From Candidatus Omnitrophota bacterium (lineage in GTDB: Bacteria > Omnitrophota > Gorgyraeia > Gygaellales > Gygaellaceae), in contig JAGYNB010000001.1 of the NCBI GenBank assembly GCA_018400015.1, positions 264,124-328,123 of the forward strand: DNA of 64,000 nucleotides, given 5' to 3'. The number at the start of each line of letters is the position of its first letter. The stretch's first letter is position 1. The position numbers were made by a program, and so were the translations under genes. Below are positions 14,164 to 47,010 of this stretch, in pieces. A model generated the notes under the pieces. It searched no databases. It saw only the letters and a program-made list of their open reading frames with translations, and was not told where the DNA came from.

Positions 14164-14168
14164 AAATA

Positions 14169-22371: not shown

Positions 22372-22566
22372 ATGAAAAAGATTTTAAAGAGGATGACAGG
22401 CAGAACCACCACTAAAAATAGAAAGAATTCTTTAAGTGGTGATGAGTTTTTTGCTAAAGTGCAGCAGAAGGCCTTTGAGCTTTATGAAAAAAGAGGCTTT
22501 ACTTCCGGTAATGAGTGGTCGGATTGGTTTGAGGCAGAAAAACTTGTAAAATCAGGTAAATTTTAG
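22372..22566 (+). CDS. Small DUF2934-like protein
   Basis: 64 aa; IAxxAYxLYEKRGfxxGxexxDWxxAE-type motif; strong RBS aaggagg. Confidence 0.45.
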   Translation: MKKILKRMTGRTTTKNRKNSLSGDEFFAKVQQKAFELYEKRGFTSGNEWSDWFEAEKLVKSGKF

Positions 22567-30346: not shown

Positions 30347-33300
30347 GCTGTTAGTAAAAGGTATTAATAGCGAAAAGCATGCCTTTGCAGGTCCTAAAAT
30401 AGTACAGATTGATCTTACGGGTAAATGTAATAATAGTTGTATAGGCTGCTGGGTGCACTCTCCTTATATAAAAAACCCACCTAGAGACAAGAATGCAGTG
30501 CTTTCATTTGAAAGAATATCGAGATTAATAGATAATTTGGCACAGTTGGGTACGCGTGAGATTTTTTTATCAGGGGCAGGTGAACCTTTTTTGCATCCTG
30601 AAGTTTTCAGGATTATCGAGGCAATAAAAGCAAAAGGTTTAAAACTTAATATAATTACCAATTTTAGTTTGATCAATAGAAGAAATGCAGAGAAGTTGGT
30701 TGATTTGAAAGTAGATATGATTACAGCAAGCATTTGGGGAGGTGATGAGGACACCTATATAAAAACTCACCCAGGTAAATCCGCAAATGATTTTGCGGCA
30801 ATCAGAAACAATATTAAAACACTGTCGCAAATAAAGAATAAAAATAATGTTTTTTTCCCTCATGTTAAGATTTTTAATGTTATTTGCAATTTGAATTGCA
30901 ACAATATACATAGTATGATCGATTTTGCTTTGGAGGCCGAGGCAGAATCTATTGAATTTCAAATCATGGATATCGTCGAAGGCTCTACTGATTTTTTAAG
31001 GTTGTCATCAGATGATATCAATATTATTAAACAGCAATTTTGTACACTTTTTGAACGAAATGATCTGTTTTTTAGAGATATAAATGAATATAATGCAGAA
31101 AATAGCAGATCTCAAGAATTATTTGAATTTTCAGGAAGGTTTATCAAGATACCCGTTGGTTTTCGTTTAGAAGAGAAGATTGAATGTACCGAAGGTAAGA
31201 ATATTTGTTTGCGTTCCTTAATCTGTCCCTCCGGATTTACCAGTTTGCCTTCTGAATCCAATCCGTTAGTCAAAGAGGACTGCAATAAGATTATTTTTAA
31301 GCGCAGCAAAGAGGAGTGTATGAACTGCAGGCATTTTAAAACAGATTGTCCTGTAAATAGAGATTTCGATATTCCCTTTAAGTATCTTCAGGTTCTTGGA
31401 CATTATCCGTTTATGAGAAGAATTAATTCTGCGGATATATATAAAAAAGAATATGAGCGTGATTTTATTGATAAATTACCTTGTTACATCGGATGGATAT
31501 ATTCTCGAGTCATATCTACGGGAGACGTTATTCCATGTTGCAAAGCGATTAATAAACCGTTGGGTAATATCAATAAAGAATATTTCAAAGAGATATGGGA
31601 CTCACAAGATTACCAAGAATTCCGGTTTAATGCCAAAAATCTGTCAAAAGCTGATGGTTATTTTAATGAAATTGATTGTTTTAAATCATGTGATAACGTG
31701 GGAATGAATATTCAGATTATTGATAATTTATCCAAAATTAATCTGGAAAAAGATCATGGTTGTAAGCTCGAAGCTGTTTATAATGGAGCAAAGTTGTATA
31801 AAAAACTGCCTCAAGCAGAGCAACAAATAATAGTAATGGCAAATTCATTCCATAACGGAAATCTTAATAAATACACCGACGAATTCGGAAAAGGCGTAGT
31901 AATCGATGGCGGATTTAAATATGGTTATGCTGAGTATGAGGTAGACTTTACTAATTCTGGGATTTATGAATTATGGTTATGTTATGCCAGCAATGAGAAA
32001 AGAGGGTTAAAGATATATATTGATGGACAGTTAGTTAAGGATAAAGCAGCTGATTATATAACCGGTGGTTGGGATAAAAGTCATTTAATTTGGAGTAAAG
32101 AACTAAAGATTTCTAACATAAAAGGCAAGCATTATATAAAGTTTGCATCGAATAATGTTTTTCCCCATATACATAGTTTTGTTTTTTTATCGAATGTAAA
32201 AAGAGAAGATTCTGATTTGATTGAATGCGGTTGTGAACAGATTTATGATGGAAAATTTCCATTCGGTGTTTTACGTGAAAAAATTAAGCGAAATGGAATA
32301 ATAATTGCATTCCGGTCTTTAGCTAAGTATATCTTGTCAGGAAAGTTTTTGAATAGCTATCTTGATATTTTGGGCATTTTTAATGGCAGTTATGCATTCA
32401 AAGGCCCTTTTCATGTGCAAATTGATCTTACTTATCGGTGTAACAATGATTGTATTGGTTGTTGGTGTAACTCACCGCTTCTTGGAGAAAAACGGATAAC
32501 AAACGAGAAGAAAAACGAAACGTTGCCTTATCCGTTAGTGATTGATTTGTTGGATGAGATTTCAGCAATGGGTGTTAAGGAAATTTATTTTTCAGGCGGA
32601 GGAGAGCCTTTTATGCATCCGAATATATTCGAAATCTTAGAATATGCAAAATCAAAGAAGCTATTATGTTATATTAATACCAATTTTACTCTTTTGGACA
32701 AAGAGAAAATTAACAAACTTATTGAGTTGGGCATAGATCATTTGACTGTGAGTACTTGGGCGGCAACCGCACAGACTTATGCAAAAACGCATCCTAACAA
32801 GAACGAAGATACTTTTAATACTATTCGCGAGAACTTAAAGTTTCTTAATAGTGTTAAAAAAACAAAACCTCATATAAAACTTTATAATGTTATATTTAAT
32901 TATAATTATCATGAGTTAAAAGAGATGATCTTATTTGCAAAGGATACGGGTTGTGAATCGGTAGAGTTTACTGTTCTTGATACGATTCCCGGGAAAACGG
33001 ATAGACTGCTTTTAAATAAGGAGCAGATCAAGGAACTCGAAGAATCTGTGATCCAAATTAAGGCGGGTATAGACAGCAAAGGTTTATATGAGGGAGTGTT
33101 GTTGTTTCGGTTTGAATCGTTTTTAAGAAGGATTTCCTCGCGTGAGGATTTATCTAATGCAACGTACGATAGGAATATTATCGATAAAATTCCCTGTTAT
33201 ATCGGATGGTGTTTTTCACGCATTATGCCAAATGGCGATGTTAATGCATGTTTAAAGGCGCATCGCATACCCAGCGGTAATTTATTTCAGCAGAACTTCA

Positions 33301-34661
33301 GGGAGATTTGGAATGGCGATAAACAGATATTTTTTCGAAAAAAAACTTTAGTGAAAGAGAAGAAGGGAGAGTTTTTTACTCTTATTGGCAATGATCTGGA
33401 CATTAAAGAAGCAGGTTGTTATAAAAGTTGTGATGATATCGGAAGAAATATATATATGCATAATAGAATAATGTCTTTAACCCTTGTTGAGAGATTTTTT
33501 CTTAAGATTTTGTCAAAGATATTCAAAAAACCGCCAGTGTCCAAAGAGAACAAAATTCTTAAAAATAACGATTTGATAAGAAAAGGTATCTTAACGAAAC
33601 GTAAGGCATTTGTCGGGCCAGAACAGGTGGTGGTTGATATTACTAATCGTTGTAATTTAAGATGTGTTGCCTGCTGGTTGTATTCTCCTGTATTAAAGAA
33701 TCCTCCGAAAAGCGATATTTTATCTGCAGAGTTATCTTTCGATCGTTTATCCGGTTTAATTAAAGAGCTTGCGGCTATGGGTACAAAAAGAATAAGATTT
33801 ACCGGAGGAGGAGAGCCTTTTTTGTATTCTCGTATTTTTGATGCTATAGCCTTAGCCAAACAAAGAAAATTGATTTGTTCTGTGACAACAAATTTTACGT
33901 TATTAAATAAGAAAAAGATCGATGAATTGATTAAGCTTGGTATTGATGAACTTACTGTAAGTCTTTGGGCTTCAAACGAGGATAATTACAGGATAATGCA
34001 TCCGGGCTGTGCTCAGGATATGTTTAAAATGATAGACGATAATTTAGATATGCTTATACAAAATAAAAAAAAGAAACCTTTTGTTACTGCGGCCAATGTG
34101 ATATCCAATCTTAACTATCGATATCTTGAGCAGATGTTCGATTTTGCTGTAAAAAAAGGGTTGGATTCGGTCTACTTTACATTGCTTGATCCTTTAGAAG
34201 GTACAGATGAACTACTTTTGGATTCAGGGCAAAAGAAAGATGTTTTAAAACAGTGTGAGAATATAAAAAGAAAAATTAAACTGTTTTCATCAGAAAAAAG
34301 AATTGAATTGCATTATTTTGATGGTTTTATATCGAGGCTTACTCAATCTCAATCAAGAGACGGTAATTATGATAAACAAAGGGTCCAAGGCGTACCTTGT
34401 TATGCAGGATGGTTGTTTGCGAGGATAATGGCGGATGGGTCTGTGTCTCCTTGCTGTCGGGCAGTAAAGAAAACAATGGGCAACATCAATAAAAATTGTT
34501 TTAAGGATATTTGGTTCTCGCGAATATATAATGAGTTTAGATCCAAAGCACTGCTTTTAGATAAAGCCGATATTTATTTTAAAGATATAGGATGTTTTAA
34601 AACATGCGATAATCTAATGCATAATGAACATATGCATAATATTCTAACATATGGAAAGTAA
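30339..34661 (+). CDS. Giant tri-modular radical SAM/SPASM(twitch)-domain protein with internal beta-sandwich (CBM-like) insert
   Basis: 1440 aa; three tandem modules, each with a CxxxCxxC motif (CNNSCIGC, CNNDCIGC, CNLRCVAC) and an SPASM-like tail (PCYIGW/PCYAGW...GDVxPCC/NAC...GN(I/L)...EIW). Residues ~470-625 (nt ~31746-32214) form an extra Trp/Tyr-rich putative carbohydrate-binding insert. Confidence 0.75.
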   Translation: MDKLLVKGINSEKHAFAGPKIVQIDLTGKCNNSCIGCWVHSPYIKNPPRDKNAVLSFERISRLIDNLAQLGTREIFLSGAGEPFLHPEVFRIIEAIKAKGLKLNIITNFSLINRRNAEKLVDLKVDMITASIWGGDEDTYIKTHPGKSANDFAAIRNNIKTLSQIKNKNNVFFPHVKIFNVICNLNCNNIHSMIDFALEAEAESIEFQIMDIVEGSTDFLRLSSDDINIIKQQFCTLFERNDLFFRDINEYNAENSRSQELFEFSGRFIKIPVGFRLEEKIECTEGKNICLRSLICPSGFTSLPSESNPLVKEDCNKIIFKRSKEECMNCRHFKTDCPVNRDFDIPFKYLQVLGHYPFMRRINSADIYKKEYERDFIDKLPCYIGWIYSRVISTGDVIPCCKAINKPLGNINKEYFKEIWDSQDYQEFRFNAKNLSKADGYFNEIDCFKSCDNVGMNIQIIDNLSKINLEKDHGCKLEAVYNGAKLYKKLPQAEQQIIVMANSFHNGNLNKYTDEFGKGVVIDGGFKYGYAEYEVDFTNSGIYELWLCYASNEKRGLKIYIDGQLVKDKAADYITGGWDKSHLIWSKELKISNIKGKHYIKFASNNVFPHIHSFVFLSNVKREDSDLIECGCEQIYDGKFPFGVLREKIKRNGIIIAFRSLAKYILSGKFLNSYLDILGIFNGSYAFKGPFHVQIDLTYRCNNDCIGCWCNSPLLGEKRITNEKKNETLPYPLVIDLLDEISAMGVKEIYFSGGGEPFMHPNIFEILEYAKSKKLLCYINTNFTLLDKEKINKLIELGIDHLTVSTWAATAQTYAKTHPNKNEDTFNTIRENLKFLNSVKKTKPHIKLYNVIFNYNYHELKEMILFAKDTGCESVEFTVLDTIPGKTDRLLLNKEQIKELEESVIQIKAGIDSKGLYEGVLLFRFESFLRRISSREDLSNATYDRNIIDKIPCYIGWCFSRIMPNGDVNACLKAHRIPSGNLFQQNFREIWNGDKQIFFRKKTLVKEKKGEFFTLIGNDLDIKEAGCYKSCDDIGRNIYMHNRIMSLTLVERFFLKILSKIFKKPPVSKENKILKNNDLIRKGILTKRKAFVGPEQVVVDITNRCNLRCVACWLYSPVLKNPPKSDILSAELSFDRLSGLIKELAAMGTKRIRFTGGGEPFLYSRIFDAIALAKQRKLICSVTTNFTLLNKKKIDELIKLGIDELTVSLWASNEDNYRIMHPGCAQDMFKMIDDNLDMLIQNKKKKPFVTAANVISNLNYRYLEQMFDFAVKKGLDSVYFTLLDPLEGTDELLLDSGQKKDVLKQCENIKRKIKLFSSEKRIELHYFDGFISRLTQSQSRDGNYDKQRVQGVPCYAGWLFARIMADGSVSPCCRAVKKTMGNINKNCFKDIWFSRIYNEFRSKALLLDKADIYFKDIGCFKTCDNLMHNEHMHNILTYGK

Positions 34662-36042
34662 TAATTTAATTAGTTATTTGGATGTATTTTTCCAAAAAGA
34701 TTGCTTTGAAAGAATAAATTCAATTATTGATCCGGATAGCCTTCAATTTAAGCCTGCCAAAGAAGTTTACGAAGATTTAAGATATTATGTGTCTAGATTT
34801 AAGACTAACAAATTCGAATTTAACAGTTATTGCAATTTAAATACGGGTTTTCTATCAAAATTGTGCGATTTGATTATTAACGCTGATTTCTGTATCAAGT
34901 GGTCGAGCCCCGCAGTTTTCAAAAAGGATTTTAACGAAGATAATATTCTACAATTAAAGAAATCAGGATGTTATAGACTTGTTTTTGATTTGTTCTCTGC
35001 ATCGGATAATTTTCTTGAAAGAATGAAAATACCTTTTGACAGCCGAGTGGTTATAAATATATTGCAAAAGTGTAAAGAGCATGGGATTGATGTTGGAATT
35101 AGGTTGTTGTTTTATCATCCGCAGTCAGATATAACTGATTTTGATAACACATTGGAGTTTATTCGTTTAAATTCAGAATATATCAAGGAGATATCCTGCG
35201 TTGACTTATGTATTAGCTCTTTTTTGCGACAGCCTAGATGCAGGAATTTTTATTCCTGCAAAGGCGATAGTAATAATAATTATTCTTCTTTGGCTAAGCG
35301 CATCATGAAACCTTACCGCATAATCAAAGATTTAGGTATTCCGGCGGTTGTTTTTTCTCCATCTGAACAGCAGTTTGATTTAATCAATAGTTTCTTTACT
35401 CGCCACGTAATTTGTAACAGAAATTTATCTTTAGTTTTTGATGGCGGTTGTTGCCATATTTTCTGGAAGAATATGCGCTTAACTAAAGGTTTCGGAATAT
35501 ATACATCTATTTTTGCTTTAGGTAATTGGCAAGATTCTCGGCAGGTCGATTGGAAATTTGTCTGTAAAGACAATTCTAGCATAGTTGTTGTTGGCAATTG
35601 GAAATTCTTGCCTATAGTACAGCAATGGCGTATAGAGATGTTTGCTGAAAATAAGATTTCTTTTTGTGTAACTATGGAAATCAAGGATGGTATCATTATA
35701 GATGGTGAACAGCAGTTTAATGTCATGTTAGACTCAGTATATAAAAGCTGGTTTTTCTCTAAAGATCTTTCCAATATTTTTCCAGAATTTTTTAACAAAG
35801 AGTGGGTTAATTTATTTGAGAAAACAATTGAACACGCTGATTGTATTGGCGTTGAGGCAAATTCTGAAAAATTCCCTGATTTGAGATTGCGCTGCGATTT
35901 TTTCCATGGAAGAAAGCTGGCCGTATTGAACACGCCATTAGAGTTTAGTTCCAGAAAGCTTAAGGCATATTTTTTCGACATGAATAAAAAACCACCAGGG
36001 GAAATAGTTTATTTTAAAGGAGAGATTTTAATTGGCAAATAA
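34651..36042 (+). CDS. Degenerate radical-SAM-like (no CxxxCxxC) protein fused to Wzt-CTD-like domain
   Basis: 463 aa; residues ~90-190 align to the distal half of the B12-rSAM barrel of ORF 36032 (LKKSGCYRLVFDLFSASDNFLERM... vs KAGCTRLCYGIESASDDVLKRM...) but the Cys triad is absent. Residues ~255-380 carry NWQDSRQVDWKFV...WKFLPIVQQWRI...YKSWF. Confidence 0.5.
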   Translation: MESNNLISYLDVFFQKDCFERINSIIDPDSLQFKPAKEVYEDLRYYVSRFKTNKFEFNSYCNLNTGFLSKLCDLIINADFCIKWSSPAVFKKDFNEDNILQLKKSGCYRLVFDLFSASDNFLERMKIPFDSRVVINILQKCKEHGIDVGIRLLFYHPQSDITDFDNTLEFIRLNSEYIKEISCVDLCISSFLRQPRCRNFYSCKGDSNNNYSSLAKRIMKPYRIIKDLGIPAVVFSPSEQQFDLINSFFTRHVICNRNLSLVFDGGCCHIFWKNMRLTKGFGIYTSIFALGNWQDSRQVDWKFVCKDNSSIVVVGNWKFLPIVQQWRIEMFAENKISFCVTMEIKDGIIIDGEQQFNVMLDSVYKSWFFSKDLSNIFPEFFNKEWVNLFEKTIEHADCIGVEANSEKFPDLRLRCDFFHGRKLAVLNTPLEFSSRKLKAYFFDMNKKPPGEIVYFKGEILIGK

Positions 36043-38002
36043 TGTTTATGATGCTGCTTTAGTTATGATGCCTCCGTGGGAGCCTAAGATAGCGCCTTTA
36101 GGTCTTGCTTATATTGCTGAACATTTAAAAAGCAATGGGTTGAAAGTTAAGATTATTGATTTTAATCTGCGTCTTTATAAGCAGTCTGATGAGAGAAAGC
36201 GCATTTTTTGGAATATTTCCAACATTAACTTTATGCCTCTTCCGGAAATTACGGCCAGAATGTCAAGTTTATTTAAAAAAGAAATTGACGGTTTAACCGA
36301 TGAGCTTATTTCTTGTAACGCCGGTGTAATAGGTTTTTCTGTCAATATTACCAGTATTGGTCTTGCCGGCAAGATAAGTTCGATCATAAAGCAAAAGGAC
36401 AGCAGTAAAATAGTTGTTTTTGGGGGAACAGGTTGTTTTTGGCAAAATGATAGAGATAGTATTGCTAGAGAAGATTTGGCATCCATAGATGCTTTTGTGA
36501 TAGGGGAAGGAGAGGAAGCTTTCACAAAAATAGTCGAGAGTCGGGGAGAGTTAATTAACCAGCTTTCTTGTGTTCTCAGCAAAGAGCAGGGTTTTCAGAA
36601 TAGGGTAATGCCCTGTCATATTTCGGATATTAATTCTTTAAGTTTTCCTAAATTTGCTGATTTTGATTTGAATTCGTATTTAGATAAGCATGTACCGATG
36701 CTGATCAGCAGAGGATGTATAGGAGGATGTGTTTATTGCATTGACCGTTTAATGTGCGGTAAATATAGAGCAAGGGACGCAGAGAGTATTATCGAAGAAA
36801 TGCAATATCATATAAATTATAATAAAATCAACGATTTTGCTTTTAATGATTTGATATGCAACGGTGATCTCAGGCAGCTGGAGAAGCTATGTGATTTAAT
36901 TATCGCTTCCGGACTTAAAGTTGTATGGAATAGCTATGCAATGATACGTAAAGATATGACGAAGGATTTATTTGATAAGATGCATAAGGCGGGCTGCACA
37001 AGGTTATGTTATGGGATTGAGAGCGCTTCCGACGATGTATTAAAAAGAATGAATAAATTTTATCTTTCAGATGATGCCAAAAGGATAGTTCAATTAACTC
37101 ATGATGCGGGGATAAACACTGCTTTTAATGTTATAGTTGGTTTTCCCGGCGAAACAATGGAAGATTTTGAAGAAACAATTAGTTTTATTGTCGATAATCA
37201 CGCATCGATAAATGAAATAACTAATATATCAAGTTTTGCAGTAATGCAGAATTCAGTTTTAGGCAAAGATACAGAAAAGTTCGGTATAATTATTCCCGAA
37301 AATAAAGATCTAAACTATTTTGTTGATAATAGAGGGTTGGATTTAAACGGGAGAATTAAACGAGTTTATAAAACTGTATTTACATCCGTAATGCTGGGTA
37401 TTAAAAATGTTATTGTAAATGTACCAAGTTATAATATCAGTTCTGATAATAATTTGGTTATGATGATTAATTTACCTCCGGCACGTGTTGATATGCCGTG
37501 TTTAGGTCTGTTGAAGATGCACAATAAACTAAATATAGCGAATGTAAAGAAAATTATAAGGGATTCGAATATTGAGTTATTTCGGATGGTTAACGAGGAT
37601 GAAAAAAGATTATGGCTAACGGAAAATTATTTTTCTTGGTTAAAGCCAGAATTTCTATTGAAAGAATACAGCCATTTGAGTGATGTTTTTTTTCAATATA
37701 TAAACGATATTGTTTCTTCTGGCGCGGGGAGAATCTACTTTTTCATAAATAAGGAGAATTGGATGTTATCTTGTAAGATATCTAACTATCTTAAGAAGAT
37801 TAGGCCAGATCTATTACTTTTTTATAACCAGGATTCTTCCGAAGAATTTATTGCGATGGACGATATTGATTTTTGCAAGATTAAACCTTTTGTTGAAAGC
37901 TTTGAAAGAAAAGAAATCAAAGATAAACAACCATTAAAATATGATTTATTAGATTTAAGTTTATACGAAGATTTATGTTTACCTATAGACCTGATTAAAT
38001 AA
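36032..38002 (+). CDS. B12-binding radical SAM protein
   Basis: 656 aa; N-terminal B12-binding-like Rossmann (ALVMMPPWEPKIAPLGLAYI); SRGCIGGCVYC cluster; GIESASDDVL, IVGFPGET core motifs. Confidence 0.75.
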   Translation: MANNVYDAALVMMPPWEPKIAPLGLAYIAEHLKSNGLKVKIIDFNLRLYKQSDERKRIFWNISNINFMPLPEITARMSSLFKKEIDGLTDELISCNAGVIGFSVNITSIGLAGKISSIIKQKDSSKIVVFGGTGCFWQNDRDSIAREDLASIDAFVIGEGEEAFTKIVESRGELINQLSCVLSKEQGFQNRVMPCHISDINSLSFPKFADFDLNSYLDKHVPMLISRGCIGGCVYCIDRLMCGKYRARDAESIIEEMQYHINYNKINDFAFNDLICNGDLRQLEKLCDLIIASGLKVVWNSYAMIRKDMTKDLFDKMHKAGCTRLCYGIESASDDVLKRMNKFYLSDDAKRIVQLTHDAGINTAFNVIVGFPGETMEDFEETISFIVDNHASINEITNISSFAVMQNSVLGKDTEKFGIIIPENKDLNYFVDNRGLDLNGRIKRVYKTVFTSVMLGIKNVIVNVPSYNISSDNNLVMMINLPPARVDMPCLGLLKMHNKLNIANVKKIIRDSNIELFRMVNEDEKRLWLTENYFSWLKPEFLLKEYSHLSDVFFQYINDIVSSGAGRIYFFINKENWMLSCKISNYLKKIRPDLLLFYNQDSSEEFIAMDDIDFCKIKPFVESFERKEIKDKQPLKYDLLDLSLYEDLCLPIDLIK

Positions 38003-38021: not shown

Positions 38022-40571
38022 ATGCAGAGTACGTTTCCTGAGAATTTATCGATTCAAACTACATCCATTTGCAATGCTCATTGTATTTTTTGTCCTTATG
38101 AGCAGATTAAAGATAAATTTCCCGCAAAGGTTATGGATAATAGTTTGTTTAGAAAGATTATAGATGAATCTAGCTCTTATCGTCAAATCAAGAGAATAAT
38201 TCTTTATATGAATAATGAACCTTTGACTGATAAGTTTATTATTGAGCGGATTAATTATGCAAAGGAGAAAATTCCTTGGTCCAGCGTGCATTTATTGACT
38301 AACGGTAGTCTTCTGAATGATGCATTGATAAGAAATCTGCTAGATTCTCGGCTTGACTGGATTGGTTTTAGTTTACATGGGGTAAGGAAGCAGACTTTTG
38401 AAAAGACAATGGGCATAGACTATGATAAAACATTTAAAAATGTAAATAATTTTATAAACTCGGCGAAAGAAGTAAAAAATATAAAAGAATACGTAATGGT
38501 TACTTTTTTGCGCCATATATATTTAAGTGAATCTGAAAAAGAAGAAGCCTTTGCTTATTGGAAAAGCAAAGGTATAGAGAGAATTAGTTATTTTGATGGT
38601 CCTGTCAGCCGTGCCGGAAACGTAAAGAATATGCCAACGGTAAGAAATCATTCGGTTTATGGCTGTAATTCAATTTGGGCAAATGAGATGATGCATATAG
38701 TTGAGGATGGAAATGTTGTTGCCTGTTGCATGGATTGGAATAGAGAAATAAACTTAGGCAATCTTAATGCTGATTCGATTGCTCAGGTGTGGAATTCACA
38801 AAGTTACAACGAATTTAGAGAAAGAAGAGACGGTTTATTGTCTTCAGAAGAAGAATTTCTGTGTAAAAGGTGCGAAATGGCAAAGACCGGTGAAACAGAT
38901 ACTAATATCCGGACAAGAAATAGCGGCAATTTGGATATTGGATTAGTAACGCTTCCTCCTTGGGGGGTTGAGAATCCTCCTATTGGGCTGGGCTATTTAG
39001 ATTCGCACCTGAGGAACAAGGGTTTTAAGACAAAGATATTTGATTTTAATATTTTATTTCATAATAGTGTTGAAGATTCTTTAAAGATGCTTTGGCATGT
39101 GGAAAATAAAAACTATTGGAGCAATAAAGAGACATTTTCCTTGCTGGTTAATATTTTCAAGAAACAGATAGAGGAAACGGTTGCTATATTGTTGTCGTCT
39201 AATTGTAAGTTTTTTGGATTTTCTGTAGTTGATCCCAAGGAAAGAATTACAATAGAAGTTATAAAAAGAATGAAGAAGAAAGCACCTCAAATAAAAGTAA
39301 TTCTAGGCGGGCCCGCCTGTTCCAGCGATGTGCAAAGAGAATTCTTTTTGCATAATGCCCCTGGGGTTATAGATTATTTTGTTGTCGGAGAAGGAGAAGA
39401 AACTCTTGAGAAAATTATCGACAACGAGATTAAATCAATAAATCCCCCTAGGGAAAATGGTGTTGCATTTTATGAATCCAAGAAATGGCATTACATTCCA
39501 AGGGATCCGATAAAGCCCTTGGATAAAATCGGTTTCCCTAAGTATGCCGGTATCAATCTCAAGGAGTATAACGGAGGCCGTTCCCTTCTTGTAGAATGGT
39601 CCAGGGGGTGTATAGGAAATTGTAGTTTTTGTAAGAATTATCACTTGGTTAAGGGCTATCGCTTCAGAAGCCCTAAAAACATAGTAGAAGAATTAAGTTA
39701 TTTTGTAAACAATCATAATATACGCGAATTTACAGTATGCGACAGTTTAATGAATGGGAATTTTAAACAGCTCAATGACGTTTGTGATGAAATTATTAAA
39801 AAAGGAATCAATATTAGATGGTCTGGTCAAATTGCATCAAGAAAAGAAATGACTGTTGATTTATTCACTAAGATGAAAAGGGCAGGCTGTTTAAAGATGC
39901 AGATTGGTGTTGAGAGCGGTTCGGATTTAGTTTTAAAGAAAATGAATAAAATTTATACTTCGAAAATCTCCCGAAATACAGTAAGAAATGCAAATAAGGC
40001 GGGTATTGAAACGGAAATATTTATAATCATAGGTTTTCCCGGAGAATCGCATAAAGAATTTATGAAAACCTATGATTTTATAAAACATAACGCCGCCTAT
40101 ATTGATACAGTTAAATCAATTAATACGCTTCATTTAATCGCAGGCACAGAGGTTTATGAACAAAAAGAGAAGTTTGGCATAAAAGAACTTCCCAGTGAAA
40201 ACTGGCATTATCTTTGGGAGACAATAGATGGCAATAATTATTCCGTAAGGAAAGAAAGAGCACAAAAAATCTTGGATTTATGTTGGCGATTAGGTATTAA
40301 GGTTATGGAAACGAACATAAAAGAAGGCAAAGAGGCGTCAGCGACAGTTTATGAAAAAATGGCAATTCCACAAGCAGTAGAAAAATTAAAGTTTGAAATA
40401 AATAAATTACAGGGTTTGCCTCAGCAGAATAAGGTAAAAACAAAGATGAGAAGAAGTTGTCTGAAATATATTCTTCTTGTTCCTATAGTTTTCTATACTT
40501 TATTTTACATAATTTATTTCCAGTTATTTAGGTTGATAAAAGGCAGGTTTATATTAGGGGGAAGCGAATAA
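38022..40571 (+). CDS. Dual radical SAM fusion: N-terminal SPASM/twitch-type rSAM + C-terminal B12-binding rSAM, C-terminal TM anchor
   Basis: 849 aa; first domain CNAHCIFC with VACCMDWN...LGNL...VWNS SPASM-like tail; second domain B12-binding + SRGCIGNCSFC; hydrophobic C-terminus ILLVPIVFYTLFYIIYFQLF. Confidence 0.75.
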   Translation: MQSTFPENLSIQTTSICNAHCIFCPYEQIKDKFPAKVMDNSLFRKIIDESSSYRQIKRIILYMNNEPLTDKFIIERINYAKEKIPWSSVHLLTNGSLLNDALIRNLLDSRLDWIGFSLHGVRKQTFEKTMGIDYDKTFKNVNNFINSAKEVKNIKEYVMVTFLRHIYLSESEKEEAFAYWKSKGIERISYFDGPVSRAGNVKNMPTVRNHSVYGCNSIWANEMMHIVEDGNVVACCMDWNREINLGNLNADSIAQVWNSQSYNEFRERRDGLLSSEEEFLCKRCEMAKTGETDTNIRTRNSGNLDIGLVTLPPWGVENPPIGLGYLDSHLRNKGFKTKIFDFNILFHNSVEDSLKMLWHVENKNYWSNKETFSLLVNIFKKQIEETVAILLSSNCKFFGFSVVDPKERITIEVIKRMKKKAPQIKVILGGPACSSDVQREFFLHNAPGVIDYFVVGEGEETLEKIIDNEIKSINPPRENGVAFYESKKWHYIPRDPIKPLDKIGFPKYAGINLKEYNGGRSLLVEWSRGCIGNCSFCKNYHLVKGYRFRSPKNIVEELSYFVNNHNIREFTVCDSLMNGNFKQLNDVCDEIIKKGINIRWSGQIASRKEMTVDLFTKMKRAGCLKMQIGVESGSDLVLKKMNKIYTSKISRNTVRNANKAGIETEIFIIIGFPGESHKEFMKTYDFIKHNAAYIDTVKSINTLHLIAGTEVYEQKEKFGIKELPSENWHYLWETIDGNNYSVRKERAQKILDLCWRLGIKVMETNIKEGKEASATVYEKMAIPQAVEKLKFEINKLQGLPQQNKVKTKMRRSCLKYILLVPIVFYTLFYIIYFQLFRLIKGRFILGGSE

Positions 40572-40676: not shown

Positions 40677-41840
40677 ATGCGTATTTTGATGGTTCATCCC
40701 CATGATATTCATTCATCAGTTGAACCTTGGACCAGAAGAGTCAAAAGTTTAGCGGAAGAGTTCGCGAAAAGCGGGCATGAAGTAAGATTGGTTTATTTTC
40801 CTTTAAAGAAAAGAGATCCAACTAACAGTAGTAACAATCTATATGAAGAGTTTGTGTTTAATCGTAATTGTTCTTTCACTAATTTTATTAAAAATACAGT
40901 TAAGTTAATAAAATTGGCTGAGTGGTCTGATGTTATGCATTTTCAAAAATGTCATCATTACGCCTCAATCCCTACAGTCATAGCAGCTTATATAAAAAAG
41001 AAGCCGTTACATTACGATTGGGATGATTGGGAAGAAATGATTTGGTATGAATCTTGCGGGAGAGGATTACATTCTTTGTTTATAGGATTTTCTTTTAGGA
41101 TTTTGGAAAGGTTTTTGCCTGTATTTGCTGATAGTGTATCTGTAGCAAGCCATCATTTAAGAACGCTTGCTTTGAAATATGGAGTAAATGAAGATAGGAT
41201 TTGTCTTGCTCCGGTAGGGGTAGATTCTAAAGAGTTTAATCCCTCTGTTGCATCGGGAAATATTAAAGATAACTATAATATTAAAGGAAATTTAGTGCTC
41301 TATGTTGGTCAATTACATGGTGCACAGTATATTGAGTTACTTATAAAAGCGGCAAAATCTGTACTGGAGCAAAGAAAAGATACCACTTTTATGATAGTGG
41401 GTGAAGGAGTTATGGAGAGAGATTTAAGGATCCTGACCAGGGATTTGGGCATAGATGACAAGGTAATATTTACAGGATCAGTTTCACATGGCCAAATTCC
41501 GGCGTATATAAACGCAGCGGATGTGTGTGTTGCTCCTTTTAGGGATACTTTGGTTACTCGTTGTAAAAGCCCTTTGAAGATAGTGGAATATTGTTCATGC
41601 GCCAAGGCGATAGTTGCAAGCAATGTAGGGGAAGTGAGAAGGATGCTGGGGGGAGTTGCCGTATTGGTTGAGCCGGGTAATTTCCAAGCTTTATCAGAAG
41701 GAATCTTGCGACTTTTGAATGAGAAGCAGTTAAGAGCTAATCTGGGAAAATTTGCACGTCTTCGCGTAGAGAAGCATTATAATTGGGCAAATACAGCAGG
41801 GGCAATATTTTCTTTATACCAAAGAATCTGCATAAAATAA
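40677..41840 (+). CDS. Glycosyltransferase, family 4 (GT-B)
   Basis: 387 aa; C-terminal EX7E-type motif region LKIVEYCSCAKAIVASNVGEV. Confidence 0.75.
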   Translation: MRILMVHPHDIHSSVEPWTRRVKSLAEEFAKSGHEVRLVYFPLKKRDPTNSSNNLYEEFVFNRNCSFTNFIKNTVKLIKLAEWSDVMHFQKCHHYASIPTVIAAYIKKKPLHYDWDDWEEMIWYESCGRGLHSLFIGFSFRILERFLPVFADSVSVASHHLRTLALKYGVNEDRICLAPVGVDSKEFNPSVASGNIKDNYNIKGNLVLYVGQLHGAQYIELLIKAAKSVLEQRKDTTFMIVGEGVMERDLRILTRDLGIDDKVIFTGSVSHGQIPAYINAADVCVAPFRDTLVTRCKSPLKIVEYCSCAKAIVASNVGEVRRMLGGVAVLVEPGNFQALSEGILRLLNEKQLRANLGKFARLRVEKHYNWANTAGAIFSLYQRICIK

Positions 41841-41850
41841 AATATTCATT

Positions 41851-42957
41851 GTGAAAATCTTATTTATAACAAGAGAAGGATATAAAATGGCGGGAGCCAG
41901 AATTCGTTGTTATAATTTTTCAAGAAATCTTATTGCCCGCGGCATTGATGCGCAGGTTGTGTCTTTTAAGGATGGTTTTGGCGCGTTTGACGGTGCAGAA
42001 GAATCAAAAATGACATTGAATGACAAAATAAGAGCAAATTTAAAGGTTTTAAATTATATAAGGCAGCAGAAGGACATAATCTTATTGATTCAGCGGTTTA
42101 ATTATCATTCTTTTGCACCTTTCTTGATGCATATTTTTGCAAAAACGAAAACTATTTTTGATCTTGATGATTGGGAAATGGATGAAAACCCAAGATATCA
42201 TTTTGGTTTTTATCCATCATCAAAAGCCCATTTTTTTTCAAAGGTTATCGCAAAAAGAAGTAATTTTTGTATAGGGGCCAGTAGGTTTTTGCAGGATTTT
42301 TTAAGCCTTTCAAACAAAAAAAGTTATTATCTTCCATCAGGCGTAGACACGGAAAAGTTTTATCCTGTTTATGATAATTTGAATAACCGGGAGTTTGTTT
42401 TTGCTTGGATAGGGACATTGAATAGAATGGAGTATATAGAGAATTTAGAGTCGCTTTTTCGTTGTTTTCAACAGGTAAGAAGAGTTTATCCATTTGTTTA
42501 TCTTGATATTATCGGTTCTGGTATATATGAGGTTGAATTAAAGGAAATAGTAAGGCTTATTGGAGATTCCCATATAAGGTTAAAAGGGTGGATTGATCCC
42601 GATAAGGTTAATAGTTATTTGGCATCGGTTAATGTTGCTGTTATGCCAATGGTGAGATCAAATAATTTTAATTTTTCCAAAAGCCCTGTTAAGCTTTTTG
42701 AGTATATGTCAACAGGAAAACCCGTTGTTGCAAGCAGTATAGGAGAAGCAAGCAAAATAATCCAAGACGGATCAAACGGTTTTTTGGCAAAAACAGAGAA
42801 AGAATTTACAGAAAAGATGCTTATTTTGGTCAATGACCCTGAGTTGTGTATAAAGCTGGGCAAAGAAGCTGTCAGAACAATTGAACAAAATTATTCATTA
42901 AATATCTTGGGTGATAAGTTGTATAACATGATTTTAGAGAATATACAATGTTCTTGA
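41851..42957 (+). CDS. Glycosyltransferase, family 4 (GT-B)
   Basis: 368 aa; KLFEYMSTGKPVVASSIGEA GT4 motif. Confidence 0.7.
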   Translation: MKILFITREGYKMAGARIRCYNFSRNLIARGIDAQVVSFKDGFGAFDGAEESKMTLNDKIRANLKVLNYIRQQKDIILLIQRFNYHSFAPFLMHIFAKTKTIFDLDDWEMDENPRYHFGFYPSSKAHFFSKVIAKRSNFCIGASRFLQDFLSLSNKKSYYLPSGVDTEKFYPVYDNLNNREFVFAWIGTLNRMEYIENLESLFRCFQQVRRVYPFVYLDIIGSGIYEVELKEIVRLIGDSHIRLKGWIDPDKVNSYLASVNVAVMPMVRSNNFNFSKSPVKLFEYMSTGKPVVASSIGEASKIIQDGSNGFLAKTEKEFTEKMLILVNDPELCIKLGKEAVRTIEQNYSLNILGDKLYNMILENIQCS

Positions 42958-43805
42958 GCATAGTTATTTTAACATTTAACAGCGGAGATTTTATAAAAAG
43001 ATGCCTTGATTCTTTGTTCTCTAATGTCTTAGAAGATACAGAAGTTATAGTTGTGGATAATGCTTCGACTGACAAGACAAAGGAGATTCTTAAATTATAT
43101 TCGTCTAAGTTACGATTTATCGCGAACGAAAGCAATCTTGGTTCCTGCGCAGGCAGAAATATTGCTATTGATAATTCTTCTGGTGATTGGATATTATTTT
43201 TGGACTGTGATATAGTCTTGCATAAAGATTTTATTGAGCAGATTATTCTTAAAATTAAATCTGTTTCAGGCCGGGTTGGTGCGGTTCAGCCGTTGATTCT
43301 TAAATCTGATTCAGAAACTATTTATTCTTGTGGAATTCGTCTTACTTTTCTTAGAAGGTTTTTTGATATTGGCAGGGATAAATCCGACAGAAGAAAATTT
43401 GCCTGTGAGAGAAGTATTTTTGGAGCATGTTCCGCAGCATCCGTTTATAGACGTAATATGATCGAGCAGATAAAAGATCAGTATGGTTATTTTGATGAGC
43501 GTTTTTTCTTTTTAGTAGAAGATGTAGATTTGTCGTGGCGCGCCAGAAAAAAAGGCTGGGAGACATTATTTTTTCCTGGTGCAAAATGTATCCATGCCGG
43601 CAACAGCTCATATTTTTCAAAACACTTAAGGCAGTATCTCAGTTTCCGCAATAGATACTATATGATATTAAAGAATGAAAATAAATATTTCCTTCTGCTA
43701 AAATCATTATTTTATATTTTTTACGATGTCCCCAGATTGGTTTTTTTATTATTTACTAATCCGTATATTTATCAGCGAAAGCTGAAATTATCCCAGCAGT
43801 ATTAA
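42948..43805 (+). CDS. Glycosyltransferase, family 2 (GT-A)
   Basis: 285 aa; SIVILTFNSG...VVDNASTD...LDCD DxD-type GT2 motifs. Confidence 0.75.
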   Translation: MFLSIVILTFNSGDFIKRCLDSLFSNVLEDTEVIVVDNASTDKTKEILKLYSSKLRFIANESNLGSCAGRNIAIDNSSGDWILFLDCDIVLHKDFIEQIILKIKSVSGRVGAVQPLILKSDSETIYSCGIRLTFLRRFFDIGRDKSDRRKFACERSIFGACSAASVYRRNMIEQIKDQYGYFDERFFFLVEDVDLSWRARKKGWETLFFPGAKCIHAGNSSYFSKHLRQYLSFRNRYYMILKNENKYFLLLKSLFYIFYDVPRLVFLLFTNPYIYQRKLKLSQQY

Positions 43806-43871
43806 CTTTCTTACCAGGTATGAGTTTATTCAGGGATAGCAGACTGATTATTTTTTTGCAAGTTAGAATAG

Positions 43872-44834
43872 ATGACTATAAATAAATTGATAAATAATAT
43901 GAAAATATGTTGTGTAATTGTGGCTTATAAAAATAAGCAATCATTGTTTAAATGCGTTTCTTGTGTTTTTGAACAATCGCTGGCAGTCAGCGATATAGTT
44001 ATTGTAAATAATCACGGCACGTTAGAGGATAATTTTAATTCAAGGATACCGATAACTATTATTAATAATTCAAACAATCTATTCTATGGAGTTTCGTTAA
44101 ATATTGCCATAAATAAGGTTCGGGCAGATTTTTATATTTGTTTAAATGACGACGCTTATATAGATAATAATTTTGTTAAAGAAGCAATCAAAGGGTTCGA
44201 CATTGGGGAAGATATTGGCATGGTCTGCGGTAAAGTTTTATCTTCTGATGGGATGAGAATAGATTCTGCTGGGTTATTTCTAGGATTAGCCAGGCAGCCT
44301 GTTGATAGAGGTCATCAAAAAGCCACAGCCGCAAGTTTTAATAATCAAAATTATGTTTTTGGTGTTCCCGGGGCTGTTGCTTTTTACAGAAAAACCATGT
44401 TGGATAGTGTTCGTATAGGAAGTGATTATTTTGATTCGGAGTATAAAATGTTTTATGAAGATATAGATCTGTGCTGGCGCGCCAATAGGTTAGGATGGCG
44501 TGCCTATTATGTTCCTTCGGCGCTTGCTTATCATCAAAGAGGGTTGAGTGCAAGAACTAACGATGGAGTTGGTAGAAGATTTGGCCGAAGGTTTTTAAAT
44601 AAAGAACTACATTTTGAATTGATCAAAAATAGATATCTTACGATAATAAAGAATGAAACCATTGCTGGTTTCTTAAGCCATATGTTGTTTATTATTGTTT
44701 ATGAGGCTGTTATTTGGTTGTATATTATTATTTTTAATCCTCTTATCGCCATGAATTTCATTCGGTTATTTTCGCTTAAGAAGGCTTTTAGAAAAAGGAA
44801 GCTGATAAATAATTTAGTTCTTAAAAAAAGTTAA
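43872..44834 (+). CDS. Glycosyltransferase, family 2 (GT-A)
   Basis: 320 aa; CCVIVAYKN...LNDDAY; shares GVPGAVAFYRK / EDIDLCWRA motifs with the preceding GT2 (paralogs). Confidence 0.7.
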   Translation: MTINKLINNMKICCVIVAYKNKQSLFKCVSCVFEQSLAVSDIVIVNNHGTLEDNFNSRIPITIINNSNNLFYGVSLNIAINKVRADFYICLNDDAYIDNNFVKEAIKGFDIGEDIGMVCGKVLSSDGMRIDSAGLFLGLARQPVDRGHQKATAASFNNQNYVFGVPGAVAFYRKTMLDSVRIGSDYFDSEYKMFYEDIDLCWRANRLGWRAYYVPSALAYHQRGLSARTNDGVGRRFGRRFLNKELHFELIKNRYLTIIKNETIAGFLSHMLFIIVYEAVIWLYIIIFNPLIAMNFIRLFSLKKAFRKRKLINNLVLKKS

Positions 44835-44858
44835 TTATATAATTTTATATTTAAATAC

Positions 44859-45989
44859 ATGAAGCGTATAAAAATACTTTTTATTATAACTTATCTTGAA
44901 CTTGGCGGTGCACAGAAGCAGTTGTTGTCGATATTGCAGTCGTTAGATAAAAAGCGTTATGATATTCATTTGTTTGCCGGTTCCTGCGGGTACCTTTTGG
45001 ATAAATTTAAAAATTTACAAGGCGTCACTTTAAAGCTATCTTCACATCTTAGGAGAGAAATAAGTTTATCTTGTGATCTAGCTTCCTTTCTGGAGATCTA
45101 TCATTATGTTAAGGTAAATGGATTCGATATAGTCCATTTGCACTCTCCCAAAGCTTCCTTTTTGGGGCGTTGGGCTGCATATTTAGCAGGCGCAAAAAAT
45201 ATTATATACACAGTGCATGGGTGGCCATTCCATGCTTTTATGAATCCTTTTTTGTTTTCTCTATATTGGATTATTGAGTTTAGCAGCGCCAGGATCACCA
45301 AGAAAATCATTGTAGTTTCCAAGGCAGATCTTAAGACCGGAATTACAAAATTCATAGCTGGGGAAAAAAAACTCGAGCTTATTTATTACGGTATTGATAT
45401 AGATAAATTCCATTCTATATCTTGCCATAGAAGAAATAGCTTTATAGACAATAAAACTATTATGGTCGTGTCTTCTTTTAAGAAACAAAAAGGCCTTAAT
45501 GATTTTCTGGTAGTTGTGAGTTTGCTTTTAAGGCAATTACCCGATACAAAGTTTATTCTTATTGGTAAAGGTCCTTTGTTTTCTGCTGTAAAAGATAAGT
45601 TAAAAAAAGAAAGTCTTGAAGGGTCTGTGGAGATGGTTGGCTGGCAGGAAAATATAGATATTTATTATGAAAAAGCCTCGCTATTATTATTAACATCCTT
45701 ATGGGAAGGTCTACCTGTTTGTTTGATTGAAGCGGTGGTTGCTGGTTTGCCTGTTGTATGCACTGATACAGGAGGGGTTAAGGATTTAATAAAAAATGCT
45801 GATAATGGAATAATAGTGCAGGTAAAGGATATCCTGGGCTTAAAAAATGCATGTTTAGACATGCTAGAAAACTATTCTGATTGGTATAAGAAAATAGTAA
45901 AATACAGATTTGATATTGATGTTTCTATCTGGAGCGATGATAGAATGTTAAGGCAACTGCAGGAAATTTATAGCGATATAGTTGAATAA
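44859..45989 (+). CDS. Glycosyltransferase, family 4 (GT-B)
   Basis: 376 aa; SLWEGLPVCLIEAVVAGLPVVCTDTGG GT4 motif. Confidence 0.75.
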   Translation: MKRIKILFIITYLELGGAQKQLLSILQSLDKKRYDIHLFAGSCGYLLDKFKNLQGVTLKLSSHLRREISLSCDLASFLEIYHYVKVNGFDIVHLHSPKASFLGRWAAYLAGAKNIIYTVHGWPFHAFMNPFLFSLYWIIEFSSARITKKIIVVSKADLKTGITKFIAGEKKLELIYYGIDIDKFHSISCHRRNSFIDNKTIMVVSSFKKQKGLNDFLVVVSLLLRQLPDTKFILIGKGPLFSAVKDKLKKESLEGSVEMVGWQENIDIYYEKASLLLLTSLWEGLPVCLIEAVVAGLPVVCTDTGGVKDLIKNADNGIIVQVKDILGLKNACLDMLENYSDWYKKIVKYRFDIDVSIWSDDRMLRQLQEIYSDIVE

Positions 45990-46017
45990 ATAACCTATTG
46001 TGTTAGAATAAATTACG

Positions 46018-47010
46018 ATGAAAATCGCATTATTTTTTATATTCAGTCTTGTTTTGAATGCAATATTGTTGAGTTTTGCTAATAAATTCGGTATAAAGTT
46101 TTCCTTATTCGGCAGGGAAAGGAAGATACCATTTACTGGAGGGCTAGCTATATTTTTAGGGTTTATTATATCTTTTGTTTGTATTGTTTTTTTTACTGAT
46201 TTAGTTTTTTCTTTTCAAGTCGTATGGTTCTTAGTTTTTTCTCTATTGATAATTATTGTTGAAACTGTAGATGATTTAAAGGATCTTTCTCTTAAGGCGA
46301 GGATATTTATACAGGTTTTAATAGTTTTTTTGTTTTTACTATTCTCAAAAAGGATTCAGATATATTTTCTCCCTGGTTGGTTAAATTATCTTGTTTCATT
46401 CATTTGGATAATAGGTATAACCAATGCTTTTAATCTTTTGGACATAGAAGATGGTTTATGCGGGGGAGTTAGTATTATAGTAGCAGCTTCATTATTAGTT
46501 ATTGCTTTGTTGAAAGTAGATTTGTTGATAATTTATTTGCTTTTGAGTCTGTTGCCTTCATTAATCGTATTTATATTTTTTAATTTCCCGCCAGCTAGGA
46601 TATTTATGGGCAATGCAGGAAGTCATTTCTTGGGTTTTTCTATAGCCGTTTTTTGCATTCAACAAGATTATGCCTTACCAAGCAATAAGATTTCTTTGCT
46701 GATTCCTTTTTTATTCTTAGTTGCGCCGATAATGGATACAATATATCTTGTTATCTCAAGAATAAGAAATAAAATACATCCTTTAAGAAAAAGCCCCGAT
46801 CATATATTCTTGCATCTTTTATCTAAAGGGTACTCTAAAAGGAAAATGTTGTTTTTGGTTTATTCTGTGACTTTACTTTGGTGTATGAGTGCAATAACGC
46901 TTTTTGAAGGGTTTAATTATATTTTTATCGTTTTGTTATTTCTTGCTGTTTTCTTAAGTGTGGTTGTTTATTTTATGGCTATTGGTGTAAAAGTTAATAA
47001 CAGTAGTTAA
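46018..47010 (+). CDS. wecA: Polyprenyl-phosphate HexNAc-1-phosphate transferase (WecA/MraY family), initiating glycosyltransferase
   Basis: 330 aa polytopic; ITNAFNLLDIEDGL (NAxNxxDGxDGL) signature. Confidence 0.75.
   Translation: MKIALFFIFSLVLNAILLSFANKFGIKFSLFGRERKIPFTGGLAIFLGFIISFVCIVFFTDLVFSFQVVWFLVFSLLIIIVETVDDLKDLSLKARIFIQVLIVFLFLLFSKRIQIYFLPGWLNYLVSFIWIIGITNAFNLLDIEDGLCGGVSIIVAASLLVIALLKVDLLIIYLLLSLLPSLIVFIFFNFPPARIFMGNAGSHFLGFSIAVFCIQQDYALPSNKISLLIPFLFLVAPIMDTIYLVISRIRNKIHPLRKSPDHIFLHLLSKGYSKRKMLFLVYSVTLLWCMSAITLFEGFNYIFIVLLFLAVFLSVVVYFMAIGVKVNNSS

Follow-up and report, generated by a model that had tools for sequence, protein, structure and literature searches.

The DNA analysed here (the window) comprises 64,000 nucleotides of contig JAGYNB010000001.1 (GenBank assembly GCA_018400015.1) of a Candidatus Omnitrophota bacterium, and the gene under study is a single open reading frame (ORF) that starts with ATG, contains no internal stop codon, and codes for a protein of 849 aa (Table 1). 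Two enzyme units of the radical S-adenosylmethionine (SAM) type, hereafter module A and module B, were found in this one chain. The Radical_SAM family of Pfam (PF04055) matched two stretches of the protein, with 128 bits against a cut-off of 29.5, and matches were also obtained for SPASM (aa 219-284, 47.9 bits, above the gathering score) and for the B12-binding domain PF02310 (47.0 bits, cut-off 32.1). The CX3CX2C motif within a partial TIM-barrel core, by which the radical SAM superfamily is defined, occurs twice, once as C17/C21/C24 (CNAHCIFC) and once as C530/C534/C537 (SRGCIGNCSFC), and VACCMDWN in module A supplies C235 and C236. The chain ends with a hydrophobic tail that reads ILLVPIVFYTLFYIIYFQLF. 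These results bear out the initial annotation of this DNA, which had quoted the same motifs and described two radical SAM subclasses fused in one chain, and they indicate that the protein combines two different subclasses with a probable C-terminal membrane anchor.

Table 1. Features of the 849-aa fusion protein, of the surrounding gene block, and of related fusions in other genomes. Positions are those of the window unless a locus is named.
Feature	Position (strand)	Residues or size	Remarks
Complete ORF	38022..40571 (+)	849 aa	Module A (Twitch radical SAM), linker, module B (B12-type radical SAM), tail helix
Module A, radical SAM core	38022..38633 (+)	aa 1-204	C17-X3-C21-X2-C24 at nt 38070-38093
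Module A, auxiliary Fe-S (Twitch-type) domain	38634..38891 (+)	aa 205-290	
Inter-module linker	38892..38927 (+)	aa 291-302	
Module B, N-terminal Rossmann-like B12-binding domain	38928..39431 (+)	aa 303-470	Pfam hit aa 382-465
Module B, radical SAM core	39594..40082 (+)	Pfam aa 525-687	C530-X3-C534-X2-C537 at nt 39609-39632
Module B, C-terminal subdomain	40083..40457 (+)		Helix 782-798, flexible segment 803-811
C-terminal hydrophobic helix, putative membrane tail anchor	40458..40541 (+)	aa 813-840	
Wzy_C / O-antigen-ligase-like membrane protein	22691..23851 (+)		Head of the co-directional block
Wzm-like ABC-2 permease	25145-25927 (+)		
Wzt/TagH-like ATPase	25924-27984 (+)		Long C-terminal extension
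B12-type radical SAM protein	27977..30346 (+)	789 aa	Closest curated family HpnJ, 226 bits (cut-off 578)
Triple radical SAM protein	30339..34661 (+)	1440 aa	Three tandem radical SAM + Twitch-like modules
Cluster-less radical SAM-like protein	34651..36042 (+)	463 aa	
B12-type radical SAM protein	36032..38002 (+)	656 aa	
GT4 glycosyltransferase	40677..41840 (+)	387 aa	
Further glycosyltransferases (GT1/GT4, two GT2, GT4) and WecA-like transferase	41851..47010 (+)		
WecA-like polyprenyl-phosphate sugar-phosphate transferase	46018-47010 (+)		
GT4-GT4-A protein	L055 7682-10843	1053 aa	Neolewinella aquimaris DSM 105137
GT4-GT4-A protein	L049 7358-10846	1162 aa	Bryobacterales metagenome-assembled genome

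A fusion of this kind might arise from faulty assembly or annotation, or be a pseudogene in decay, and a stop codon or frameshift between the two halves had been named at the outset as the sign to look for. None was found. The ORF is uninterrupted, the base composition is even along the gene, and an identical protein is on record in an NCBI contig of 418,724 bp. In addition, 16 proteins of 780-885 aa from independent assemblies align through the A-B junction. Eleven of these orthologues align from the very start, while five begin at the equivalent of Met38; the first cluster motif occurs in each of the 11 whose N-terminus is complete, the second in 16 of 16, and all cluster cysteines are invariant. 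The linker differs in length and sequence among the orthologues, and aa 276-302 have a pLDDT (predicted local distance difference test) below 50 and are disordered in the AlphaFold model of the protein (mean pLDDT 80.4, predicted TM-score (pTM) 0.58). An artefactual origin has next to no probability, and it was rejected.

The N-terminal half had been called SPASM-type, and this description was only partly right: an auxiliary Fe-S domain does follow the core of module A, but it is of the Twitch type. Just five cysteines occur after the core, arranged as C215-X14-G-X4-C235-C236 and C281-X2-C284, and all five are invariant in the 16 orthologues. The CX14GX4C part of the seven-cysteine SPASM signature is present at C215-C235 and the CX2CX5CX3C half is absent from module A, so that the domain is not a full SPASM domain but one of the one-cluster Twitch type; the SPASM match was obtained because the Pfam model also takes in truncated domains. 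The best sequence relative of known structure was BtrN (E = 6e-14, the next best being 6e-3), in an alignment that covers both the core and the Twitch domain. C215, C235, C281, and C284 align with BtrN C169, C187, C232, and C235, which we take to be the ligands of its single auxiliary cluster. Among the fold matches to this part of the protein, BtrN again ranked first (target-normalised TM-score 0.69-0.72). Judged from sequence and model, module A is a Twitch enzyme of the BtrN type with one predicted auxiliary [4Fe-4S] cluster.

The likeness to BtrN, the 2-deoxy-scyllo-inosamine dehydrogenase of butirosin biosynthesis (PDB 4M7S/4M7T), extends to the layout, a core followed by a truncated SPASM (Twitch) domain, and to a link with carbohydrate-type substrates. 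However, the identity in the structural alignment is only about 18%. Unlike BtrN, module A carries an extra invariant cysteine, C236, adjoining a cluster ligand position, and an invariant NNEPL (aa 64-68) in the place of the SAM-binding motif (YGEP/GGE). It also shares its chain with a second enzyme, and its genetic setting is a surface-glycan cluster and not an aminoglycoside pathway. BtrN (PMC9012708) and HygY, a related Twitch sugar enzyme, are precedents for Twitch enzymes that act as sugar dehydrogenases or epimerases, and the title of a study on HygY, cited in PMC10991966, states that one cysteine decides between the dehydrogenase and the epimerase outcome.

In module B, a Rossmann-type B12-binding domain at the N-terminus precedes the radical SAM core, and this is the architecture of class B. 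The best fold matches of module B were TsrM, OxsB, CysS, and TokK (Foldseek E = 1e-17 to 1e-15), in which the same two domains are found; the identity to solved class B structures is 14-17%, and the sequence matches to solved structures were weak (9ccb 1.5e-8, OxsB 3.6e-7). GEGEE at aa 456-460 is invariant among the orthologues, as is the second cluster motif, and WHYLWE and METNIxEGKE are conserved in the C-terminal subdomain. This subdomain and the hydrophobic tail helix are additional to the solved enzymes, and we know of no solved class B enzyme that has such a tail. At the family level the relatives of module B are HpnJ, BchE, PhpK, and the MoeK5/GenK-type sugar C-methyltransferases, the corresponding NCBIfam families ranking at the top. 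Nevertheless, all 25 listed NCBIfam families scored below their curated cut-offs for the whole 849-aa protein. The highest scores were 151 for rSAM_ocin_1 (TIGR03975; cut-off 282), 119 for BchE (481), and 97 for HpnJ (578), and PhpK, rSAM_ladder_B12, ApyD, and W_rSAM_matur were among the others compared. On architectural grounds, module B counts as a radical SAM enzyme of class B, and it lies outside every characterised family.

The strongly hydrophobic C-terminal helix reported for this protein was recovered as well. Only one region, aa 812-839, exceeds 1.6 in a Kyte-Doolittle profile with a 19-residue window, reaching a maximum of 2.12, while the remaining approximately 800 residues peak at 1.21. 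In the AlphaFold model, aa 813-840 form an isolated continuous helix behind the low-confidence flexible segment 803-811; the helix is flanked by KTKMRRS and RLIKGR, after which ILGGSE follows. A hydrophobic segment was found within the last 60 residues of 74 of the 120 best homologues and of 85 of the 251 homologues retrieved in total; its uncharged core has a median length of 24 residues, and its flanks are net-positive. The tail is hydrophobic in every protein carrying it, at an identity of about 30-50% compared with 50-63% for the catalytic core. It is this conservation at the extreme C-terminus, and not the hydropathy peak itself, that makes the tail credible as a real feature, and the helix is a putative membrane tail anchor.

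A short LLGG motif (ILGG in the 849-aa protein) recurs a few residues past the tail helix and is usually followed by 1-4 charged residues. A sorting signal of the PEP-CTERM or GlyGly-CTERM type was considered for the tail, the motif definitions being taken from general knowledge, and was rejected, since there is no signal peptide and the Gly-Gly pair comes after the helix rather than before it.

The fusion recurs widely. When the 251 homologues were sorted by module content (A, B, S-type, tail), A and B were found in one chain in 86 of them, with B directly after A in 85. The exact A-B-tail layout was shared by 18 homologues, and a further 34 had A-B without the tail. Longer and shorter arrangements were common too, including A-B-B-tail (25 homologues, about 1300 aa), B-B-tail (16), and B-tail alone (21, about 547 aa); others reached A-B-B-B-B (about 2300 aa) or had an S-type module mixed in. 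An exhaustive search returned 1,773 clusters (50% identity) at E <=1e-30, and the polyproteins listed were up to 2,689 aa long. A and B are encoded by neighbouring genes, and not as one chain, in DPANN archaea, Acidobacteriota, and Bacteroidota. Near-full-length "fusions" suggested by tblastn in these three groups turned out, when their ORFs were read, to be adjacent genes or different fusions, and they were not counted. Thus, the same parts occur in different genomes in different fusion states. The initial annotation had taken the fusion to imply two sequential radical reactions on one substrate. The A-B fusion is, however, one arrangement within a family whose modules are freely shuffled, and by itself it need not mean that the two reactions have to follow one another on a single substrate.

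A DPANN archaeon, represented by a Woesearchaeota metagenome-assembled genome (MAG; locus L035, 656-7458), has the fusion in split form. Here the A-type module is a gene of its own (307 aa) and shares 4 bases with the beginning of a 1960-aa ORF, which holds the B-type tblastn matches of that locus.

All genes between 22691 and 47010 of the window are co-directional. Between 22691 and 38002, successive genes share 4-11 bp, and 19 bp separate the last of them from the fusion gene. The block opens with a Wzy_C/WaaL-like protein, a flavin amine oxidase, a Wzm-like permease, and a Wzt/TagH-like ATPase, continues with the 789-aa HpnJ-like B12-type protein, the triple radical SAM-Twitch protein, a 463-aa remnant, the 656-aa B12-type protein, and the fusion gene, and ends with GT4, GT1/GT4, two GT2, and GT4 glycosyltransferases (GTs) and a WecA-like transferase. 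A ManC (GDP-mannose pyrophosphorylase) gene lies just upstream. A WecA-like transferase, five GTs, Wzm/Wzt, and a Wzy_C protein encoded in one direction are the make-up of a glycan cluster dependent on an ATP-binding cassette (ABC) transporter, to which at least seven radical SAM modules are added here. The Wzt/TagH-like ATPase has a C-terminal extension of about 430 aa with no Pfam match, and its orthologues at loci L001 and L003 are 1146-1165 aa long. This extension could be a new glycan-recognition or tailoring domain.

The same arrangement was observed in two other Omnitrophota genomes, in another Omnitrophota-type contig, and in contigs of Candidatus Kaelpia, Nanoarchaeota, and Woesearchaeota. 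Genes for Wzm/Wzt, the GT4 protein of about 387 aa, GT2, and PMT_2 recur beside the radical SAM genes in Omnitrophota, Kaelpia, Nanoarchaeota, and Woesearchaeota. The archaeal partners include Wzm, Wzt (with a Wzt_C carbohydrate-binding domain in one archaeal Wzt), GT4, GT2, and sulfatase-family genes. Among 70 loci, the 387-aa GT4 was the best-conserved partner that is not a radical SAM protein (51-61% identity in close relatives with a downstream flank). Furthermore, double-GT4 proteins that carry an A-type module at their C-terminus are encoded in the cultured bacterium Neolewinella aquimaris DSM 105137 and in a Bryobacterales MAG (Table 1). A second stand-alone A-type gene adjoins the GT4-GT4-A gene in both, and the Neolewinella gene also adjoins a GT9 heptosyltransferase-like gene. 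The glycan context proposed in the initial annotation is therefore upheld, being conserved across phyla and accompanied by fusions of A-type modules to GTs in other lineages. The conserved neighbourhood, the translational coupling with transporter and radical SAM genes, and the GT-A fusions elsewhere tie the family to glycan assembly. It is a large, uncharacterised, modular enzyme family of cell-surface sugar-polymer gene clusters. For the 849-aa protein itself, we think it somewhat probable that it is a membrane-tethered tailoring enzyme that modifies a glycan in two radical steps before an ABC transporter exports it.

The GT fusions would be equally compatible with a radical SAM module that supplies a GT with its donor. 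The enzyme would then work on nucleotide sugars in solution, for example derivatives of GDP-mannose or UDP-HexNAc, which the adjacent GTs would use afterwards, and the tail would only concentrate the enzyme near the assembly machinery. The ManC gene upstream fits this explanation, and the characterised sugar-modifying relatives of the modules, BtrN and the fold matches AprD4, OxsB, and TokK, act on small soluble substrates. However, an enzyme that handles soluble precursors would not be expected to have a membrane-type tail, and such a tail is conserved on the terminal module of 85 homologues. None of the modules is joined to a nucleotide-binding or nucleotidyltransferase domain, and the at least seven radical SAM modules of the cluster fit the stepwise decoration of a polymer better than the synthesis of a single donor sugar. 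Soluble nucleotide sugars are less probable as the substrates, though a real possibility.

Three of the radical SAM genes preceding the fusion gene have fused counterparts in other genomes. The 1440-aa protein has CX3CX2C motifs at residues 30, 701, and 1105; each of its three modules contains CX13GX4C and CX3C, none contains CX2CX5CX3C, and a CC pair occurs in modules 1 and 3. Its relatives are 1299-1431 aa long in other Omnitrophota, and in Candidatus Kaelpia the counterpart is fused to a B12-type radical SAM protein (1917 aa). The 463-aa protein comprises only the C-terminal part of a radical SAM barrel without CX3CX2C. It is homologous to the C-terminal extension of A-Bmid-Cext relatives of about 1015-1037 aa and is encoded by a separate 465-aa gene in L001, and it may be a non-catalytic subunit. 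The 656-aa protein is the counterpart of the "mid" B module that stands between A and the terminal B in the relatives of about 1300 aa (38-43% identity). Its residues 471-562 resemble the start of a B12-binding domain, with 30% identity to aa 301-388 of the 849-aa protein, and this part looks like the remnant of a former extra module.

The 789-aa protein bears on a different kind of substrate. It is closest to HpnJ, which contracts the sugar ring of hopanoids, and the target of the enzymes might be a membrane lipid or a glycolipid head group, subject to methylation, bridging, or ring formation as with Hbs/Hgm, GrsA, HpnJ, and Cds, with GT4 making the glycolipid and the ABC transporter flipping it. 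The membrane tail fits such a target, and the GT4 proteins weakly match glycolipid synthases. In archaeal lipid modification, SPASM/Twitch and B12-type radical SAM enzymes cluster as Hbs and Hgm, and Mss/Hbs homologues occur in Omnitrophota (10.1101/2023.10.20.563219). On the other hand, module A is BtrN-like with 4-5 cysteines and not AhbD/Hbs-like with 7-8, no Tes, Mss, Grs, or isoprenoid genes were found within the window, and five GTs together with the WecA-like and WaaL-like proteins are the signature of polymer assembly on a carrier. A lipid target appears quite improbable. About 310 N-terminal residues of the 789-aa protein are without a domain match. An N-terminal transmembrane helix had been assigned to this protein, but the assignment is weak: the hydrophobic stretch is marginal, with a hydropathy maximum of 1.71, it contains three basic residues, and the orthologue in L003 lacks it.

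The highest NCBIfam score of module B belongs to a C-methyltransferase subfamily (TIGR03975, 151 bits) for peptides that are made on ribosomes and modified after translation (RiPPs). Many SPASM enzymes are peptide maturases, and the block contains an ABC transporter, so the block might be read as a RiPP cluster in which a ribosomal peptide is cross-linked, epimerised, and C-methylated as in proteusins, then glycosylated and exported. Yet this score is well under the cut-off of 282, and the transporter is of the Wzm/Wzt (ABC-2) type. The overlapping radical SAM genes leave no space for a precursor gene, and no peptidase or leader-processing gene is present in the block. The cluster motif begins at residue 17, and neither an N-terminal Pfam domain nor a RiPP-recognition domain was found there, a search that did not include dedicated profiles of the RiPP-recognition element. 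The only small intergenic ORFs nearby, of 64 aa and 26 aa, do not have the look of core peptides rich in Cys, Ser, or Thr. A RiPP cluster is thus a highly improbable explanation. A match of GT4 to TIGR04157, a GT of a Bacteroidales peptide system, was also followed as a RiPP lead and discarded as generic GT4 similarity (60 bits, cut-off 400).

Several other features of the window were recorded. Its IlvD protein shares 90% identity with IlvD of Candidatus Gygaella obscura, whose genus belongs to the phylum Candidatus Omnitrophota, and the remaining named hits come from Omnitrophota or from bacteria of the PVC group, which places the source organism near Gygaella. The 64-aa intergenic ORF (22372-22566, +) has a basic N-terminus and a WSDWFEAEKL motif, is unlike a RiPP precursor, and presumably resembles small proteins of the DUF2934 type. 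Genes of the Fe-S and radical SAM kinds are also plentiful in the window beyond the cluster itself. SufC/SufBD genes lie downstream of the block (49140-50946), another B12-type radical SAM gene is located at 540-2108, an RlmN-like gene at 21271-22293, and 12452-14960 holds two P-loop proteins of the NUBPL/ParA type that carry ferredoxin inserts, with a small radical SAM protein after them. Up to about 56 kb of the window the GC skew is strongly positive (0.15-0.3) and nearly all large ORFs are on the plus strand; beyond this point the skew is 0.04-0.13 and genes occur on both strands.

If the 849-aa protein is a tailoring enzyme of a surface glycan, the steps might be as follows. The operon-like block would build the glycan, with the WecA-like enzyme starting the chain on a polyprenyl phosphate carrier, the GT4 and GT2 enzymes lengthening it, and several radical SAM enzymes modifying it, after which Wzm/Wzt would export the product and the WaaL-like protein would probably ligate it. 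By analogy with BtrN, module A would take a hydrogen atom from a sugar carbinol carbon. Either the secondary alcohol would be converted to a ketone, with the auxiliary cluster accepting an electron, or a hydrogen atom would be re-donated and the centre inverted to give an epimer, for which the invariant C236 is a candidate hydrogen donor. Methyl transfer via methylcobalamin is the commonest reaction of class B enzymes, and module B would most probably methylate an unactivated carbon in this way; a ring rearrangement of the OxsB or HpnJ kind is less probable. With a tail anchor on its last module, the enzyme, perhaps in a complex with its partners, would be kept at the cytoplasmic face of the membrane. 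Radical SAM enzymes must act on the cytoplasmic side because they need SAM, a reductant, and Fe-S clusters, and in the Wzm/Wzt pathway the polymer is finished on its lipid carrier on that side before export. The domain composition, the intact and recurring fusion, and the conservation of tail and glycan neighbourhood are observed here, whereas we infer that the helix enters the membrane, that the substrate is linked to a lipid, what chemistry each module performs, and in which order the steps occur. Precedents for radical SAM chemistry on lipid-linked sugars are HpnJ and Cds, which resemble the role proposed here in acting on a sugar attached to a membrane lipid (PMC13459092), but which are single-module enzymes of hopanoid or archaeal-lipid pathways.

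Several observations weigh against this proposal. The free shuffling of modules shows that the physical A-B fusion is not needed for function, and the pTM of 0.58 leaves the mutual placement of the two modules undefined in the AlphaFold model. The protein is not a member of any characterised family, its NCBIfam scores being far below the cut-offs, and its chemistry is proposed by analogy only. Cobalamin binding is not readable from the sequence of module B, and class B enzymes are not all methyltransferases. As to the tail, the hydropathy peak of 2.12 was matched in 458 of 5000 composition shuffles (9%) and is not significant. Both flanks of the helix are basic, with net charges of about +5 and +4, and the topology is therefore ambiguous between a transmembrane helix, an in-plane helix, and a protein-protein contact.

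Both kinds of module are already known, and proteins with two radical SAM domains have a precedent in FbiC. Like the 849-aa protein, FbiC (F0 synthase, CofG + CofH) carries two radical SAM domains in one chain (PMC11917521). Unlike it, FbiC is soluble, serves cofactor synthesis, and has two similar domains that are neither B12-dependent nor Twitch-type, whereas the 849-aa protein joins two different subclasses, belongs to a family that extends to chains of three to five modules, and has a glycan context. The domains of FbiC act in one pathway and are separate proteins in other organisms. The gene set around the fusion gene matches the scheme of ABC-dependent O-antigen and teichoic-acid pathways (WecA, GTs, Wzm/Wzt, WaaL). 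However, in the known pathways the glycan is tailored by conventional methyl-, acetyl-, or phosphotransferases, unlike the seven or more radical SAM modules here, and a literature search found no described ABC-type glycan pathway with at least seven such modules. Nor did it find a description of the Twitch and class B pairing, the conserved tail, the recombination of modules, or the association with Wzm/Wzt in Omnitrophota/DPANN. The pairing, the tail, the recombination into polyproteins, and the association with Wzm/Wzt glycan clusters in these organisms appear to be new.

A broader proposal, which we hold tentatively and regard as possible rather than probable, is that shuffled modules (Twitch-type A and S, B12-type B, up to five per chain), a membrane-tethered last module, GT4, and Wzm/Wzt form an undescribed system for a radical-modified surface glycan or glycolipid. 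Its product might be C-methylated, oxidised or epimerised, and possibly carbocyclic or cross-linked, and ultra-small Omnitrophota and DPANN archaea would have the system in common, probably through horizontal transfer. Most known cases of radical SAM enzymes acting on sugars come from antibiotic pathways, with a few lipid head groups besides. Should the proposal be true, whole blocks of radical SAM modules would decorate a cell-surface polymer before its export. Class B radical SAM enzymes are poorly sampled, and the family would bring them new members and possibly new reactions. Module shuffling offers a natural "Rosetta stone" for enzymes acting together, the single-module versions are likely to be easier to express, and the GT4-GT4-A fusion of the cultured Neolewinella aquimaris DSM 105137 is a tractable experimental entry point. 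Omnitrophota and DPANN archaea are abundant, tiny, and mostly uncultured organisms that live attached to other cells, and their envelopes would be chemically unlike any described lipopolysaccharide or capsule.

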